DNA of 63,119 nucleotides, counting the filler, from an uncultured Ignavibacteriales bacterium (lineage in GTDB: Bacteria; Zixibacteria; MSB-5A5; GN15; JAAZOE01), in assembly GCA_964611355.1 (NCBI GenBank). It is 4 parts of 4 records of this genome, joined end to end, with 100 filler letters (N's around TTAATTAATTAA, not from the genome) between each part and the next. Parts side by side here need not be neighbours in the genome. Positions count along the whole stretch, not along the records: positions 1 to 17,917 come from CAZSYD010000047.1; 3 more parts are not named here. One strand, written 5' to 3'. A program made the position numbers. Shown one piece after another: positions 1 through 9,000 of the stretch. Every line of letters starts with the position of its first letter. Positions within the stretch are counted from its first letter, which is position 1.

Positions 1-3000
1 GTGAGCGCTCCCAGAGAACTGTGCGGCCATGAGTTGTTGCAATCTTGTTTTCACTCAGTTAATTACTGTTTTGCATCCTCCAATGTCAAGAAGGATTAGC
101 CATTGAGAGACTCGTCACGGAGAGGTTTTTCACCTGCAGGGATTTTATCCGTATGGCAGAGGGCCATGGTATCAACAGTCGGCGCTTCATGCGCCGTCAC
201 GAACCCTTTCGCGACAGCTATATTGATGCAGTAGCAGGTCACGCCGACTCGCGGCGTGACAAAATGAATGTCAAGCCCCAAGTGGGCTTGACCTACCAGA
301 CTGGCAGGTCTCTTTGAGACCTGTCCTACGAATTTAATACTTAAAAAAAGATCAAGTAGTAGTAGGTCAACCTCCTGTGGTTTTGACATTCTAAGAAATT
401 TTCCGTACATTTGACTATGTCCAAGCTTCGAAGATTCAAGACCCACCGCAAGGAGGTTGTCCCAAAAGTGCGTGTTCCGGCAGGTCTTGCGGTTGCCGAA
501 GGCAAACGTGTGACCTGCCGGTTGATAGTCCTACTGTGCAACAATGGCTTATGAGTAATCGTCGGGTCACACCCTCGACTTCGTCGCATCCAAGACCCGA
601 CGGAACAGCAATAACTCTTATTCCACTAAAGCCTTGCCAAGATGGCCATCGGGTATTATAATGGTTTTCTTTTATGTCATTGGACAAAAAGGAAATGTTT
701 AATCAATAGATTGAGGTACCCGCATGGTTGGAATAGTTGGATACGGGGCGCATATACCGCGACACCGGATAAAGGTCGAGGAAATCGCCAAGGTCTGGGG
801 CGCCGACGCTCCCAGCTATAAGAGAGGGTTGATGCTTGAGCAGAAATCGGTTCCGACGCCGGACGTCGATACCATAACCCTTTCGGTCGAAGCGACCAAA
901 AACGCCCTCAAACGGGCAATGATAAACCCGAAGGATATAGGCGCTGTCTATGTCGGTTCGGAATCGCATCCGTACGCCGTCAAGCCGTCGGGAACGACAG
1001 TTGCCGAGGCAATCGGAGCGGTGCCGGACTGCCACTGCGCCGATTTCGAGTTTGCCTGCAAGGCCGGCTCGGAGGCGATGTTTGTCGCGTTGCAACTGGT
1101 TAAGTCAGGCTCCATGAAATATGCCCTTGCCGTCGGCGGCGACACCTCGCAGGGCGCTCCCGGCGACGCGCTCGAATATTCGGCCTCAGCCGGTGCGGCG
1201 GCCTTTATTATGGGTAAAAATAATCTCATAGCCGAAGACGTGGCGACCTATTCGTTTATGACCGACACGCCAGATTTCTGGCGGCGCGAATATGAATTCT
1301 ATCCTCAGCACGGGGGACGATTCACCGGCGAACCGGCTTATTTTCGGACGGTAATCGGCGCGGCTGAGGGAATTCTGAAAAAAGTCAAAATGAAAGCCAA
1401 AGATTTTGATTATGTAATCTTCCATCAGCCGAACGGCAAGTTCCCGCTTCGAGTGGGCAAAATGCTCGGCTTCACGAAAAAACAGATCGAGCCGGGGTGG
1501 TTGACGCCGCGCCTGGGAAATACCTATTCCGGTTCGTCTCCGCTGGGGTTGACCTCGACTCTCGATATCGCCAAACCGGGCGATATGATCCTGATGATAT
1601 CATACGGTTCCGGGGCCGGTTCGGACGCCTTCGTCTGGCGGGTGACCGATCGGATTAACGAAGTCCGCGACAAAGCCGTCCACACGACCAAGCTTCTGGA
1701 CGAAAACCAGATTTACGTTGATTACGGTACCTATGCCAAGTACCGCCACAAGATTCTGAAGAACAAGTAGGAGGATTATGAAAATGAGGGAAGTTGCAGT
1801 AGTTGGCATCGGTATCCTGAAATGGGGCGAGCTTTGGGAGAAATCTTTCCGCAATATATTCACCGAAGCGGCCCTTAACTCCATCGATGACGCCGGTGTC
1901 GATCATATAGATTCGCTTTACGTGGGATGTATGACAGGCGGCCTGTTTGTCGGGCAGGAGCACGTCGGTGCGGTCATGGCCGATTATATCGGTCAGAAAA
2001 ATATTCCGGCCGTCCGCGTGGAGTCGGCCTGCGCATCCGGAGCCATAGCGTTCCGCCAGGCTTTCATGGAAGTCGCTTCCGGGATGTCCGACATCGTCAT
2101 GGCGGGCGGCGTCGAAAAAATGACCGACGTTTCCGGCGACGGCGCGACCTATGCGCTGGCCACCGCCGCCGATCAGGAATGGGAGGTTTTCCACGGTGTT
2201 ACCTTCCCGGGTCTGTATGCAATGATGGCCCGGGCCTACATGAAAAAATATAAGATGACACGCAAACAGCTTTCGGCGGTGCCGTACAAGAATCACCAGA
2301 ACGGCGCAAAAAATCCATACGCTCAATACTCGTTTCCGATTAAACTCGAAGACGTTGAAAAGGGCGTTCTGATTGCCGATCCGCTGCATATTCTTGACTG
2401 TTCGCCGATCACCGACGGCGCGGCCGCGGCGATTTTGACGACGGTTGATATAGCCAAAAAGCTGAAGAAACCGATTATCAAGGTAACCGGTTCCGGTCTG
2501 GCTACCGACACTATCGCTTTAGCGCAGCGGGAAAGCCTGACCTGGTTAAAATCAACCGAACTGGCCGGAAAGGCCGCTCTCAAGATGGCCGGCAGGAAAA
2601 TCACCGACATCGACCTTATTGAGGTGCATGATTGTTTCTCGATTGCAGAGATTATCGTGACCGAATCGCTTGGCCTTTTCAAACCGGGCAAAGGAGCGAA
2701 AGCGGCTGCCGACGGCGTGACGGCGCTGGACGGTAAAATTCCGGTCAATACTTCCGGTGGTCTGAAGGCCAAAGGTCACCCTGTCGGCGCGACCGGCATC
2801 GGTCAGGTGGTTGAAATCGTCAAGCAGCTTCGGGGCGAAGCCGAAAACGGCCGCCAGATTAAGGGCAATCCCAAAGTCGGGATGGCCCAGAATATGGGCG
2901 GTTCCGGCGCGTCAGCGGCTGTGCATATTATGGAGGTGGCATAATGTTTCCCGCGAGAATATGGCGTCAATTTCCACAGAGGTATCGTCTCGAAGCGGCC

Positions 3001-6000: not shown

Positions 6001-9000
6001 CCGCCTCTGGAGTCGTATTTGAATATCGATAAAATTATCGAAGTCGCCCAGCGGGTGGGAGCGCAGGCGATTCATCCCGGGTATGGCTTTCTGGCGGAAA
6101 ATCCCAAATTTGCGCAGGCCTGCGTTAACAACGGTATGGCTTTTATCGGATCGACTCCCGAATCGATCCGGCTCATGGGAAACAAGATTGAATCGCGCCG
6201 GGAAATGGCTAATGCAAACGTGCCGCTTATTCCCGGTATGGAGAAGGCCGGAGGCGATATTGAAGAATTCAAAATAGCCGCGGAGAAGGCTGGGTATCCT
6301 GTGTTGATAAAGGCGGCCGGCGGAGGCGGCGGCAAGGGAATGCGCATCGTCAATAATCGCGACGAACTTGATACGGCGGTCGAGGGCGCGCGCCGCGAAT
6401 CGAAATCGGCGTTCGGTGATGATACGGTTTATCTTGAAAAATATATCGTCGATCCCCGTCACATAGAATTTCAGATTCTGGCGGATACTCACGGCAATGC
6501 CGTTCATCTATTCGAACGCGAATGTTCCATCCAGCGTCGGCATCAAAAGATCATCGAAGAGACGCCGTCGGTGGCGGTGACGCCGGAATTGCGGAAAAAA
6601 ATGGGCGAAGCGGCCGTGGCCGTGGCCAAAGCAGCCGGATACGTCAATGCGGGTACGGTGGAGTTTTTGCTCGATCCCGACGGCAAGTTCTACTTTCTCG
6701 AAATGAATACCCGTATCCAGGTGGAGCATCCTGTTACCGAGGAAGTGGTCGGTGTTGATCTCGTGGCCGAACAGATTCGCATTGCCTCAGGTTTTCCGCT
6801 ATCGGATCATTTCAAAGACCTCAGGCAGCGCGGCCACGCTATCGAATGCCGTATTTATGCCGAGGATGCGGCCAACAATTTTATGCCGTGTATCGGAAAG
6901 ATTCTGCTTTATCGGGAACCGACCGGCCCCGGCGTACGGGTTGATTCCGGCGTCAGGCAGGGAAGCGAAGTCGGCATCGATTACGATCCCATCTTAGCCA
7001 AGCTGATCGCCTGGGGCGAAAATCGTGATATGGCCCGCGCCCGAATGATAAAAGCCTTAAATGATTACAAGATATTGGGCCTGCGCCATTCGATAAAATA
7101 CCTTGCCGATATTATTGCGCATCCCAAATTCGCGTCAGGAGAGACTTATACAAGTTTTATCGATCGCAATTTCTTCGACTGGAAAGAAAAGACCGGCGAA
7201 AATCTTGAGGTTGCCCTTGCCGCCGCCGCTGTGATCAACGCTAATGGAGGCGGGAAAATCGCCGTTTTTGGCGGCAACGGCGAAGTCGAAAGATCGTACA
7301 ACCCCTGGCTGACGATGGGCCACTGGCGGATAGGGGAGAAAATTAAATGAACCAGGAGTTCGTCTATAAGGGCGAAAGCAGGGCGGTTGAACTAAAGAAT
7401 AATCGTTTCGCCTCCTTCCCCAATAGTTCGAATACGATTGAAATCGAATATACGCCGGACGGCCGCTTGTTTCTGCATAACGGTACGCAGGCCAGGGAGA
7501 TTTATGCCGCCGTTGACGGCGACAAGACCTTTGTCGATATCGACGGCGTTCTTTACGAATTCGCTCTTCCCTCGCAGGATGCATCGGCCGCCGGAGGCGG
7601 CGCCGGTATGGCCGAAGACCCATCGAAAGTCTTCGCTCCGATGCCGGGGAAGATCGTCAAGATCATGGTCGGAGTGGGCGATACGGTCGAGCCGAAACAG
7701 CATCTGGTCATCGTCGAAGCGATGAAAATGGAAAATATTATTATCGCTCAGGGCAAGGGTAAAGTCATCGCCGTTAATTTTTCCGTCGGCCAGCAGGTGG
7801 ACACCGACAATCCGATTATTGAGTTGGAATTGGATAGTTAGTCACAGTTCGAACAGGTCGGCGTTCCGATCCGCCACAGGCGGAGAGAAACCCGATATAG
7901 AAAAGATTTTGGATGCGGGCTGGATTACAAGCTAATATTCAACCCCCCTGTTATCGGAATATAATCGAGGTTTCCTTCGGTGAGTGAAATCTTACAGTAC
8001 CGGCCTTCGAGGAAGAAATTGATTTTGGGAAGCGCATTGACCTTTATGCCGCCGCCGAAGCAGTAGAAGAATTTTGTTTTCGGTTCCAGACCGCCCAAAT
8101 CGCCCAACGCGCCGCTTATGATGTCAAATATGTCCTGCGAAAAGTTATACCTAGCGACGCCCGCTCCGATCAGCGCATACGGCCGGAATTTCAGGCCCGG
8201 AGCCGCTAGATTGGCCCGGACATCAAGGCCGTATTCGGAGACGGTGAAGGTTTCGTCGTCGTTTTCTTTGAATGGAAACGAATGATAGCCGAATCGTGCT
8301 ACCGTTTCCAGCATCGGAACCGGGCTGAAACCCAGACCGACCATGCCGTGATAGCCGGTTTTACAGATATCTTTCATGTCGGTTGTGGGAACCGACAGGC
8401 CGCCTCCGCCGTAGATATTAAAACCGAGACTGACCTGTGCCGCCGCAGGTGCTGCGCACAGGGTAATGGCGGTAACCGCCGTAATAAAAATCTTCATTTT
8501 ATCCTCTCTGGTCTTTTATTAAGAAATTGCTATCTTTCAGCTATCAATTAAGCAAATGCCTCTTAATATTATCGGCAATTTCGACCCGTTATTAGATTAT
8601 GTCTCCCTGAAATTTGCGATTATAAATCTATCGCAGATCAAATACCCGCGCAACAATAATTATGAACGCCTTCTAATAGTATCCCGTCTGATCAGAAACA
8701 ATCTCGTGATTGTGATTTTTTTCACTTGCGCTTGGAGGCCTCTTTTAATATTTTAATAATTCTAACCAATTGTCTTTTTTAGGGCATAACCTCGTGGAGG
8801 AATAATGATGTCTGATTTAAATGAAGTTTATATAGTCTCAGCCTGTCGGAGCGCTATCGGCGTTATTTTGGGGGGGGTATCGACTGTCCCCGCTCCGATG
8901 CTTGGTGCGTTTGCGATCAGGGAAGCGGTTAAACGGGCCGGCGTTGACCCGAACAAGGTTGACGAGGTCATTATGGGCGAGGTTGTTCAGGCCGGTGTGG

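Follow-up and report, generated by a model that had tools for sequence, protein, structure and literature searches.

An archaeal-type HMG-CoA synthase/thiolase/DUF35 operon with methylcrotonyl-CoA carboxylase genes is a probable leucine degradation module in an uncultured Zixibacteria genome

The window analyzed (63,119 nucleotides of joined contig parts from assembly GCA_964611355.1) carries seven co-directional ORFs at 724–7841, separated by gaps of 7, -1, 84, 4, 2, and -4 nt. This arrangement agrees with the single operon proposed in a preliminary description of the locus, in which the genes for HMG-CoA synthase (HMGS), thiolase, and DUF35 (the triad) precede those for methylcrotonyl-CoA carboxylase (MCC) and a hydratase. 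The features of the region are:

634..662, + strand: sigma70-like promoter (TTGCCA-17-TATAAT), 61 nt 5' of the HMGS start; a consensus match only (11/12)
724..1770, + strand: archaeal-type HMGS, 348 aa (E80, C112, H234, N266)
1778..2944, + strand: archaeal/SCP2-type acetoacetyl-CoA thiolase, 388 aa (C85-x-S, H284-D-C-F, G-H334-P)
2944..3339, + strand: DUF35 scaffold, 131 aa (zinc ribbon, CxxC at 21 and 35; OB fold)
3424..5031, + strand: 3-methylcrotonyl-CoA carboxylase beta (carboxyltransferase), 535 aa
5036..5827, + strand: crotonase-family hydratase, 263 aa, probable 3-methylglutaconyl-CoA hydratase (substrate inferred from position)
5830..7350, + strand: biotin carboxylase (MCC alpha, N-terminal part), 506 aa
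7347..7841, + strand: biotin carboxyl carrier, 164 aa (AMKM motif at residue 125)
7925..8497, - strand: outer-membrane beta-barrel gene between two acyl-CoA clusters, outside the pathway
8805..13776, + strand: companion cluster of a classical thiolase, 3-hydroxyacyl-CoA dehydrogenase, two acyl-CoA dehydrogenases, and a BioY biotin transporter

The promoter is suggestive only, because the scan returned 13 sites, the one at 634–662 being the best, versus 8.7 ± 3.1 in shuffled sequences. An Rfam search over 1–18000 found no riboswitch or leader, only two tRNAs.

The HMGS matched archaeal-type profiles (NCBIfam PRK04262, 536.8, cut-off 244; TIGR00748, 534.7, cut-off 353) and the structure 6ESQ (E 4.3e-138), versus a score of 109 for the bacterial MvaS-type TIGR01835, below its cut-off of 360. 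The E-C-H-N tetrad, as defined in section 10 of PMC12960953, is complete, which upholds the earlier assignment. The tetrad was also conserved in 104/104 HMGS ORFs from a set with repeated genomes (one ORF is too short for N266). The thiolase scored 524.6 with PRK06064 (cut-off 420) and 504 with AcCoTHIOL_METTL, under its cut-off of 600, and has all of the CxS, HDxF, and GHx motifs. The DUF35 protein combines a ChsH2 zinc ribbon with an OB fold. Like the archaeal complex of Methanothermococcus (6ESQ/6ET9), the three genes are adjacent and retain these catalytic residues, and their products presumably form a complex here as well. Unlike the archaeal system, they reside in a bacterial host of the MEP pathway with no later mevalonate enzymes detected, lie alongside MCC and hydratase genes, and are proposed to operate in reverse. 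The Friedel-Crafts acylases PhlABC and MucABC share the three-protein scaffold (PhlA, E 1e-65) but no longer have the tetrad in their HMGS or HDxF in their thiolase; here both are intact, and no PKS or NRPS gene adjoins the triad.

The carboxyltransferase is of the MCC-beta type, as judged from its matches to human MCCB (E 5e-220) and the Pseudomonas-type MCC beta 3U9R (E 5e-217) versus geranyl-CoA carboxylase (7e-130) and classical PCC beta (~1e-82). Its top match, 9TPS (3e-222), is labeled by the depositors as a propionyl-CoA carboxylase beta. The operon supplies carboxyltransferase, biotin carboxylase, and biotin carrier. The hydratase has a crotonase fold but scored below every specific cut-off (PRK07468, 262/350; PRK05674, 237/426), so its substrate was read from context; it shares 44% identity with the hydratase from a lyase-type operon. 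Two acyl-CoA dehydrogenases 3–5 kb 3' of the operon and one on another contig fell below specific cut-offs; one in the companion cluster, whose first four genes come after those for MCC in many of the relatives fetched, is a candidate isovaleryl-CoA dehydrogenase. MCC beta, biotin carboxylase, carrier, hydratase, and nearby acyl-CoA dehydrogenases are also found in liuABCDE and the Desulfococcus isovalerate cluster with HmgL, as described in part of PMC5109826. In contrast to these clusters, we found neither a LiuE lyase nor acetoacetate activation here; the triad or, in relatives, AtuA is present instead.

The host genome (a 110-contig MAG, 96.4% complete) encodes Dxr and has no PF00368 match, consistent with the earlier view of an MEP host without HMG-CoA reductase (HMGR); MVK, MVD, PMK, and IDI2 were not found either. 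The reported lack of HMG-CoA lyase also held: nothing exceeded the NF004283 cut-off, and the sole PF00682 match is a 617-aa frame whose length and biotin motif at the C terminus led us to read it as pyruvate-carboxylase-B/OadA-like. For acetoacetate activation, neither SCOT nor acetoacetate-CoA ligase was found. The genome does contain the ketoisovalerate oxidoreductase (VorB, above cut-off) and acyl-CoA dehydrogenases (8805..13776) described before, together with FabH/FAS II and IlvE (53%, tblastn with the E. coli query). E. coli LeuA, IlvD, IlvH, HisG/D/H/A/F/I, TrpA/B/C, ArgB/C/E, and ThrB/C gave no tblastn match.

We surveyed 150 relatives from the phylum, which are not independent samples and whose gene absences are drawn from MAGs. 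As claimed previously, HMGS was common (122/150) and HMGR rare (20/150); lyase-family proteins were found in 25 and MCC beta in 136. The MCC-beta genomes divide into those with the triad only (88), triad and AtuA (26), AtuA only (14), a strong lyase only (7), and none (1), the last (G023) having thiolase and DUF35 genes that run into a contig end. Ten of the 14 relatives without an MCC beta match had no triad, AtuA, or lyase. What is new here is that the HMG-CoA step in MCC-beta genomes is filled by the triad, AtuA, or a classical lyase. A strong SCOT-type CoA transferase was present in 16/150 genomes, including 7/8 with a strong lyase but 0/118 with a close triad and 0/40 with AtuA. Of five genomes tested for acetoacetate-CoA ligase, two had it, one with the triad only and the other with AtuA only. 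LeuB was found in 0/151 phylum genomes at E<=1e-90. IlvC was present in 146/151 and did not track the triad; as it is also an orphan here (between nadC and nth), its co-occurrence was discarded as an uninformative test of leucine synthesis.

A strong lyase was missing from 117/118 close-triad relatives. One relative (G121) has triad and lyase genes side by side, which speaks against simple replacement; its thiolase is frameshifted. Weaker lyase matches (268–287 bits) lay in a separate lyase/CaiB/LeuC-like cluster in 6/6 loci examined, of 18 such matches. The "HMGS plus lyase" genomes noted earlier are therefore mostly carriers of a paralog. We consider it very improbable that an undetected lyase cleaves HMG-CoA, with the triad being a passenger or serving as a thiolase only. 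The fragmented assembly leaves room for such a gene, and passages of PMC12960953 describe a tetrad-less Pseudomonas complex that is thiolytic only. However, the tetrad is retained in all HMGS ORFs, and the lyase is missing too consistently in relatives and in other hosts, including 0/36 triad genomes outside the Zixibacteria with a lyase-family match, three of them single-chromosome records.

AtuA, a third occupant of the triad's slot that the preliminary description overlooked, lies immediately upstream of MCC beta in 38/38 same-contig cases (40 AtuA genomes) and in 13/13 triad-negative, lyase-negative loci fetched. Its predicted model (pLDDT 87) matched citramalate lyase structures with AMPPNP/citramalate and with ADP/pyruvate bound (9EVF, E 5e-25; 9ERQ, Z 30.7, rmsd 3.4, 423 aligned; next Z 9.1); 9ERQ is itself titled an AtuA-family protein. 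It is the fold match that carries this link, because a single-sequence PDB search returned nothing at E<=0.01 and a profile search reached 0.021 at best. The ESM Atlas gave no usable match, and identity to citramalate lyase is 16%. Citramalate and HMG-CoA have a common CH3-C(OH)-CH2-COOH arm, whose removal from HMG-CoA leaves acetoacetyl-CoA, and release of acetoacetyl-CoA from HMG-CoA is the HMGS reaction reversed. The AtuA of relatives has the fold of citramalate lyase CmlAB and, by substrate analogy, would break the same type of bond. Unlike CmlAB, which is nucleotide-bound per the PDB titles, the triad has no ATP need, and this genome has no AtuA. Part of PMC4847356 includes AtuA in its list of enzymes "characterized or tentatively identified" and gives it the role of acetate-releasing lyase in the geranyl analog; the low identity and the assignment of the geranyl-pathway lyase step to LiuE in PMC4097962 weaken the AtuA argument. 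In a quick MCC-beta tree, AtuA-only loci of one family nested with loci carrying both triad and AtuA (support 95), next to triad-only loci of another (99), a topology compatible with AtuA having displaced the triad.

Taken together, the operon probably serves to degrade leucine or isovalerate, with the archaeal triad, its HMGS reversed, in place of HMG-CoA lyase. The link to leucine/isovalerate metabolism proposed earlier is supported, and the direction, previously left open, now tilts to degradation. Leucine would be converted to isovaleryl-CoA by IlvE and the ferredoxin oxidoreductase (VOR), then to 3-methylcrotonyl-CoA by an acyl-CoA dehydrogenase/ETF, to 3-methylglutaconyl-CoA by MCC (1 ATP), and to HMG-CoA by the hydratase. 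C112 of HMGS would capture the free carboxylate of HMG-CoA, and retro-aldol cleavage would yield acetoacetyl-CoA and an acetyl-enzyme, whose acetyl group would pass to CoA or be lost as acetate. The coupled thiolase would split acetoacetyl-CoA at once and pull the HMGS reaction, while Pta/AckA would hold acetyl-CoA low. The net reaction (HMG-CoA + 2 CoA -> 3 acetyl-CoA) would leave no free acetoacetate for re-activation and gain about one ATP-equivalent per leucine over lyase or AtuA routes. The analysis shows the genes with their motifs and linkage, the pattern of slot occupancy, and the absences; complex formation, the hydratase and dehydrogenase substrates, the direction, and this gain are what we infer.

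Degradation is favored because the triad sits where relatives have an HMG-CoA-splitting enzyme, with triad, AtuA, or lyase in 135/136 MCC-beta relatives, and because the AtuA model in that slot matches citramalate lyase. The retained ATP-dependent biotin carboxylase, the pairing of strong SCOT with strong lyase and never with a close triad, and the presence of IlvE in a genome without LeuA and much amino-acid biosynthesis argue likewise. So does the distribution of HMGR, which is unmatched in 98/118 close-triad relatives, 97 of them with Dxr. Against reversal, the archaeal complex makes HMG-CoA in an exergonic HMGS step, according to parts of PMC11522927 and PMC12960953, and the thioester must be re-formed from a free acid. 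In our parametric energy table, which uses no database values, reversal needed high CoA together with low acetyl-CoA to be favorable, except where the net standard energy is distinctly negative. The acetoacetate-CoA ligases in 2/5 genomes also count against degradation, as do the 26 genomes that retain triad and AtuA together, since the pair may work in opposite directions and not be redundant.

The known direction of the archaeal complex suits a forward route, which we regard as unlikely, in which the triad makes HMG-CoA from 3 acetyl-CoA, hydratase and reversed MCC yield methylcrotonyl-CoA, and an acyl-CoA dehydrogenase/ETF yields isovaleryl-CoA as an iso-fatty-acid primer, electron sink, or, with VOR and IlvE, a LeuABCD-independent leucine source. 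Myxococcus performs the same chemistry with MvaS, LiuC, AibA/B, and AibC (part of PMC5389471), likewise tying HMGS to methylglutaconyl-CoA and isovaleryl-CoA without mevalonate, but with a bacterial MvaS and a dedicated decarboxylase instead of an archaeal triad and ATP-dependent biotin carboxylase. FabH/FAS II, VorB, IlvE, and the scarcity of LeuB (1/36 other hosts above cut-off) also fit, and opposite directions could account for the 26 genomes with triad and AtuA. However, hosts checked lack Val/Ile and His synthesis, and this genome also Trp, Arg, and Thr synthesis, so leucine alone gains little. The route would leave 88 triad-only genomes with an MCC operon but no catabolic exit, the slot-mates of the triad are cleavage enzymes, and IlvC does not follow the triad. 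Furthermore, AibA/B presumably have the family-I CoA-transferase fold, for which this genome gave no PF01144 match and no tblastn match with three GctAB-like queries.

A close triad is present in all 20 HMGR genomes, Dxr is missing from 11 of these, and two annotated mevalonate operons (IDI2, HMGR-MVK fusion, MVD, PMK-like) have no HMGS; the triad may therefore feed mevalonate there, which speaks against a purely degradative reading. These genomes, and the parametric table, in which the net reaction changes sign as the CoA/acetyl-CoA ratio varies, are consistent with a bidirectional hub that equilibrates acetyl-CoA and HMG-CoA, degrading plentiful leucine and otherwise supplying mevalonate or branched primers. 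Such a hub is improbable here: none of the mevalonate enzymes sought was found, leaving no known anabolic sink, and leucine could itself provide HMG-CoA in mevalonate genomes.

The same operon occurs in Aminicenantes, Coatesbacteria, and Phycisphaerae. Five of five other-phylum hosts tested lacked IlvD and HisD, with LeuA above cut-off in none. Most genes for amino-acid biosynthesis are missing from the hosts checked, which must therefore import amino acids, so isovaleryl-CoA is obtainable straight from leucine. Among the matches listed (titles and abstract starts), no paper covered such an operon or an HMGS running backwards during leucine breakdown. The back-reaction of S. aureus HMGS has reportedly been demonstrated in vitro, and a metagenomic study of syntrophic isovalerate degraders is said to have possibly proposed a reversed HMGS, which, if real, would reduce the novelty here. 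Parts of other sources route leucine into mevalonate in an archaeon (PMC12979851) or place thiolase/DUF35 in fatty-acid synthesis (bioRxiv 2024.07.05.601840); PMC6163223 is about polyketides, and passages of PMC7382037 leave HMG-CoA unmentioned. The earlier description had called leucine metabolism a third use of the complex; the count is loose, since passages of PMC12960953 also cover the tetrad-less Pseudomonas complex, which only cleaves acetoacetyl-CoA, and since the triad may also feed mevalonate in the 11 relatives with HMGR and no Dxr.

HMGS is regarded as a biosynthetic enzyme that works in one direction; annotation pipelines would take the triad for a defective mevalonate pathway and list the leucine pathway as incomplete. 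If the complex is reversed, it would provide low-energy microbes with an extra ATP-equivalent per leucine or isovalerate, account for some of the 1,001 bacterial triad loci without secondary-metabolism neighbors reported in passages of PMC12960953, and give pathway design a way to cleave HMG-CoA that conserves CoA. The slot comparison also provides the AtuA/DUF1446 family with a specific function that can be tested. There is about an even chance that several uncultured amino-acid-scavenging phyla degrade leucine by fully reversed HMGS/thiolase, keeping all three acetyl units as CoA thioesters, and that AtuA proteins are ATP-dependent HMG-CoA-cleaving enzymes displacing the triad. Three interchangeable chemistries with differing ATP costs would then serve one step, and the complex that founds archaeal lipids would have a catabolic role.

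The seven genes of the operon run in one direction through positions 724–7841 with gaps of 7, −1, 84, 4, 2 and −4 nt, confirming the preliminary description that the HMG-CoA synthase (HMGS), thiolase and DUF35 triad shares an operon with methylcrotonyl-CoA carboxylase (MCC) and a hydratase-like gene. The HMGS is of the archaeal type (PRK04262, 536.8 against a cut-off of 244; TIGR00748, 534.7 against 353) and matches PDB 6ESQ with an E value of 4.3e-138. The thiolase is of the archaeal/SCP2 type, above the cut-off of PRK06064 and at 504 against 600 for the Methanothermococcus equivalog, and the third gene codes for a DUF35 protein. 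The catalytic signatures described in passages of PMC12960953 (E-C-H-N in HMGS; CxS, HDxF and GHx in thiolase) are complete in this triad, and the HMGS tetrad is invariant in 104 of 104 ORFs (at least 45% identity; fetched loci, repeated genomes included). The carboxyltransferase is of the MCC-beta type (human MCCB, 5e-220; geranyl-CoA carboxylase, 7e-130; classical PCC, about 1e-82). The crotonase scored above no specific cut-off, and the remaining genes code for a biotin carboxylase and a biotin carrier. The window joins contigs C47, C48, C50 and C69 via N runs, and the neighbourhood past 17917 is unproven. Its features are:

634–662, sigma70-like site upstream of the seven-gene operon, a consensus match only
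8805–13776, companion cluster: classical thiolase, 3-hydroxyacyl-CoA dehydrogenase, two acyl-CoA dehydrogenases, BioY
14491–14500, 17918–18017, 35597–35696 and 52792–52891, N runs

The window also carries two tRNA genes (16434–16593), a sulfhydrogenase-like NiFe hydrogenase cluster (19365–23925) and a pyruvate:ferredoxin oxidoreductase (37965–41609).

Every family was searched in one set of 150 relatives from the phylum, with a threshold of E≤1e-150 for MCC beta. HMGS was present in 122 relatives (118 at ≥68% identity, hereafter close; four divergent, at 55–57%) and MCC beta in 136. Close HMGS and MCC beta co-occurred in 114 genomes and shared a contig in 87; the number with a same-strand MCC beta following HMGS rises from 59 within 4 kb to 74 within 8 kb and 83 within 16 kb (for G109 and G114, the fragment on the shared contig was taken). 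Three genomes of one family (G005, G025 and G116; f7) have a second, divergent triad (loci L018–L020, HMGS 55–57%). These three fetched loci contain no MCC genes, and the genomes have HMG-CoA lyase, SCOT and Dxr and no match to HMG-CoA reductase (HMGR); a ketogenesis-like use is possible.

The operon is real and conserved across phyla. The best 80 of 584 confirmed HMGS matches in GTDB contigs included Aminicenantes, Coatesbacteria, Eisenbacteria, Planctomycetota and Acidobacteriota. In the 51 loci whose downstream sequence reached 6.5 kb or more, thiolase and DUF35 were always present, 47 had carboxyltransferase, hydratase and biotin carboxylase, and none had lyase or AtuA, the alternative occupant of the triad's slot in relatives. 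In Phycisphaerae and two Acidobacteriota loci the genes are ordered differently and the carboxyltransferase, of 577 aa, is about as distant from MCC beta as from glutaconyl-CoA decarboxylase A; thus, the link between triad and carboxylase survives a change of carboxylase. This protein (operons L076, L078 and L081–L087) may represent an undescribed carboxylase subfamily.

The triad probably works in reverse in leucine breakdown. Leucine would be converted to HMG-CoA via IlvE, VOR, acyl-CoA dehydrogenase, MCC and hydratase, and the triad would then turn HMG-CoA and two CoA into three acetyl-CoA with acetoacetyl-CoA channelled. By stoichiometry, the reversed triad would require no re-activation of acetoacetate, unlike the lyase route, would spend no ATP, unlike the AtuA route, and would pay back the ATP consumed by MCC. 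The chief obstacle to reversal is thermodynamics and kinetics: the archaeal complex, as described in PMC11522927, couples the endergonic thiolase step with exergonic HMG-CoA formation. In a parametric energy table (no database values) the sign of the reaction depends strongly on the CoA/acetyl-CoA ratio. A back-reaction of bacterial HMGS has reportedly been seen in vitro.

The MCC loci fetched from genomes negative for triad and lyase had a 600-aa AtuA immediately upstream of MCC beta (13/13), where the triad sits in the genome under study. AtuA occurs in 40 of the 150 genomes and, in all 38 cases where the two share a contig, immediately precedes MCC beta. The 136 MCC-beta genomes divide into triad only (88), triad plus AtuA (26), AtuA only (14), strong lyase only (7) and none (1; G023, its triad broken by a contig end), counts that kinship among the relatives makes a pattern rather than a statistical test. 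Triad, AtuA and lyase are all missing from 10 of the 14 genomes with no MCC-beta match. When 45 MCC-beta proteins were placed in a quick tree, AtuA-only loci of family f2 fell among triad-plus-AtuA loci beside triad-only f4, a position consistent with AtuA gain followed by triad loss; f3 forms its own AtuA-only branch. In two AtuA-only f3 operons (L006 and L012), no hydratase gene separates carboxyltransferase from biotin carboxylase.

AtuA from locus L024, modelled with AlphaFold (88-row alignment, pLDDT 87), had one clear structural match, citramalate lyase (9ERQ: Z 30.7, rmsd 3.4, 423 residues, next-best Z 9.1; 9EVF: E 5e-25). The PDB titles give AMPPNP and citramalate as ligands in 9ERQ and ADP and pyruvate in 9EVF, and the 9ERQ entry also calls the protein AtuA-family. 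Citramalate and HMG-CoA share a methyl carbinol and a free acetate arm, whose removal would yield pyruvate and acetoacetyl-CoA, respectively; chemically, the bond cut would be the one HMGS makes. Passages of PMC4847356 list AtuA among 'characterized or tentatively identified' enzymes, as an acetate-releasing lyase for the geranyl analogue, a step that PMC4097962 assigns to LiuE. The two alternatives to the triad thus probably both cleave their substrates, and most simply the triad would have this function too.

Lyase-family proteins occur in 25 of the 150 relatives and form two classes. The eight strong ones (355–407 bits) are of the classical type, six of them no more than about 6 kb from the MCC-beta match on the same contig; that of G046 is on another contig, and that of G121 lies inside a liu operon whose carboxyltransferase is split. 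In G121 (L017:6587–14490) a triad is convergent with this classical operon and the triad's thiolase is frameshifted near codon 284, both lesions reflecting decay or assembly error. The weaker matches lay in a separate lyase/CaiB/LeuC-like cluster in all six loci examined of 18, and these inflate lyase counts. The cluster (L139–L143 and L149, from G045, G034, G009, G110, G137 and G030) conserves a paralogue of HMG-CoA lyase together with a CaiB-type CoA transferase and a LeuC/LeuD-like aconitase pair; the pathway may be of a citramalate/mesaconate type. Strong SCOT-type transferases occur in 16 of the 150 relatives, including seven of the eight strong-lyase genomes, and in none with close triad or AtuA; counting against this pattern, two of five genomes tested (one triad-only, one AtuA-only) have acetoacetate-CoA ligase.

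As previously proposed, neither HMGR nor lyase was detected in the genome under study, which is 96.4% complete and encodes Dxr. Tblastn with relatives' proteins likewise found no HMGR-MVK, MVD, PMK, IDI2, lyase, SCOT, CaiB or AtuA there, and nothing exceeded the acetoacetate-CoA ligase cut-off. Lyase was also missing from 36 non-Zixibacteria hosts (chosen by record title, completeness not stated). That a lyase escaped detection and performs the cleavage is very improbable.

The genome carries IlvE, VorB, PFOR, AckA, Pta, ETF alpha and FabH. It also has a methylmalonyl-CoA mutase cluster, which includes a second carboxylase, of PCC-like type. No haem-copper oxidase was found, and E. coli queries recovered no LeuA, IlvD, IlvH, HisG/D/H/A/F/I, TrpA/B/C, ArgB/C/E or ThrB/C; matches to LeuB, LeuC and LeuD scored highest as (homo)isocitrate dehydrogenase and aconitase/homoaconitase. 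The organism looks like an anaerobic amino-acid scavenger. Among the non-Zixibacteria hosts, LeuB exceeded its cut-off in one of 36, LeuA in none of five, and IlvD and HisD were missing from the same five (three single-chromosome records). Forward synthesis of isovaleryl-CoA, as passages of PMC5389471 describe for Myxococcus AIB, is unlikely, as the hosts checked are generally auxotrophic and the 88 triad-only genomes would have no catabolic exit.

Despite its lack of IlvD, the genome has an orphan IlvC between nadC and nth (L133:5599–6615, contig C15), and IlvC is present in 146 of 151 phylum genomes. IlvC has a role in pantothenate synthesis, which the orphan perhaps serves. Locus L134 (contig C46) clusters two mutase large subunits, one of which may be an isobutyryl-CoA mutase, with an epimerase, a PCC-like carboxylase and an acyl-CoA dehydrogenase. 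The triads of L084 and L106 have mutase genes beside them as well. A fungal-type homoaconitase match (853 against 530; L151:2855–4825, contig C79) adjoins a PrpD-like gene, although homocitrate synthase was not found.

HMGR occurs in 20 of the 150 relatives, all with a close triad, and in the 36 non-Zixibacteria hosts gave one strong and two weak matches. A hub whose triad runs in both directions, a reading we consider improbable, has its appeal for the 11 of these 20 relatives that lack Dxr. The mevalonate operons of G017 and G119 (L144:4026–8265 and L145:5699–10998) encode IDI2, MVD, a PMK-like kinase and an HMGR/mevalonate kinase fusion of about 770–790 aa, without HMGS.

Passages of PMC12960953 put the bacterial triad loci at 1,030, of which 1,001 have no secondary-metabolism neighbours, and name mevalonate, acylase and thiolysis-only roles. 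All the proteins here are members of known families; their wiring had no precedent in the literature searched, and closed-access work on syntrophic isovalerate degraders may hold a related suggestion. The operon is a variant on known pathways, and the mechanism proposed for it would be surprising and is directly testable.
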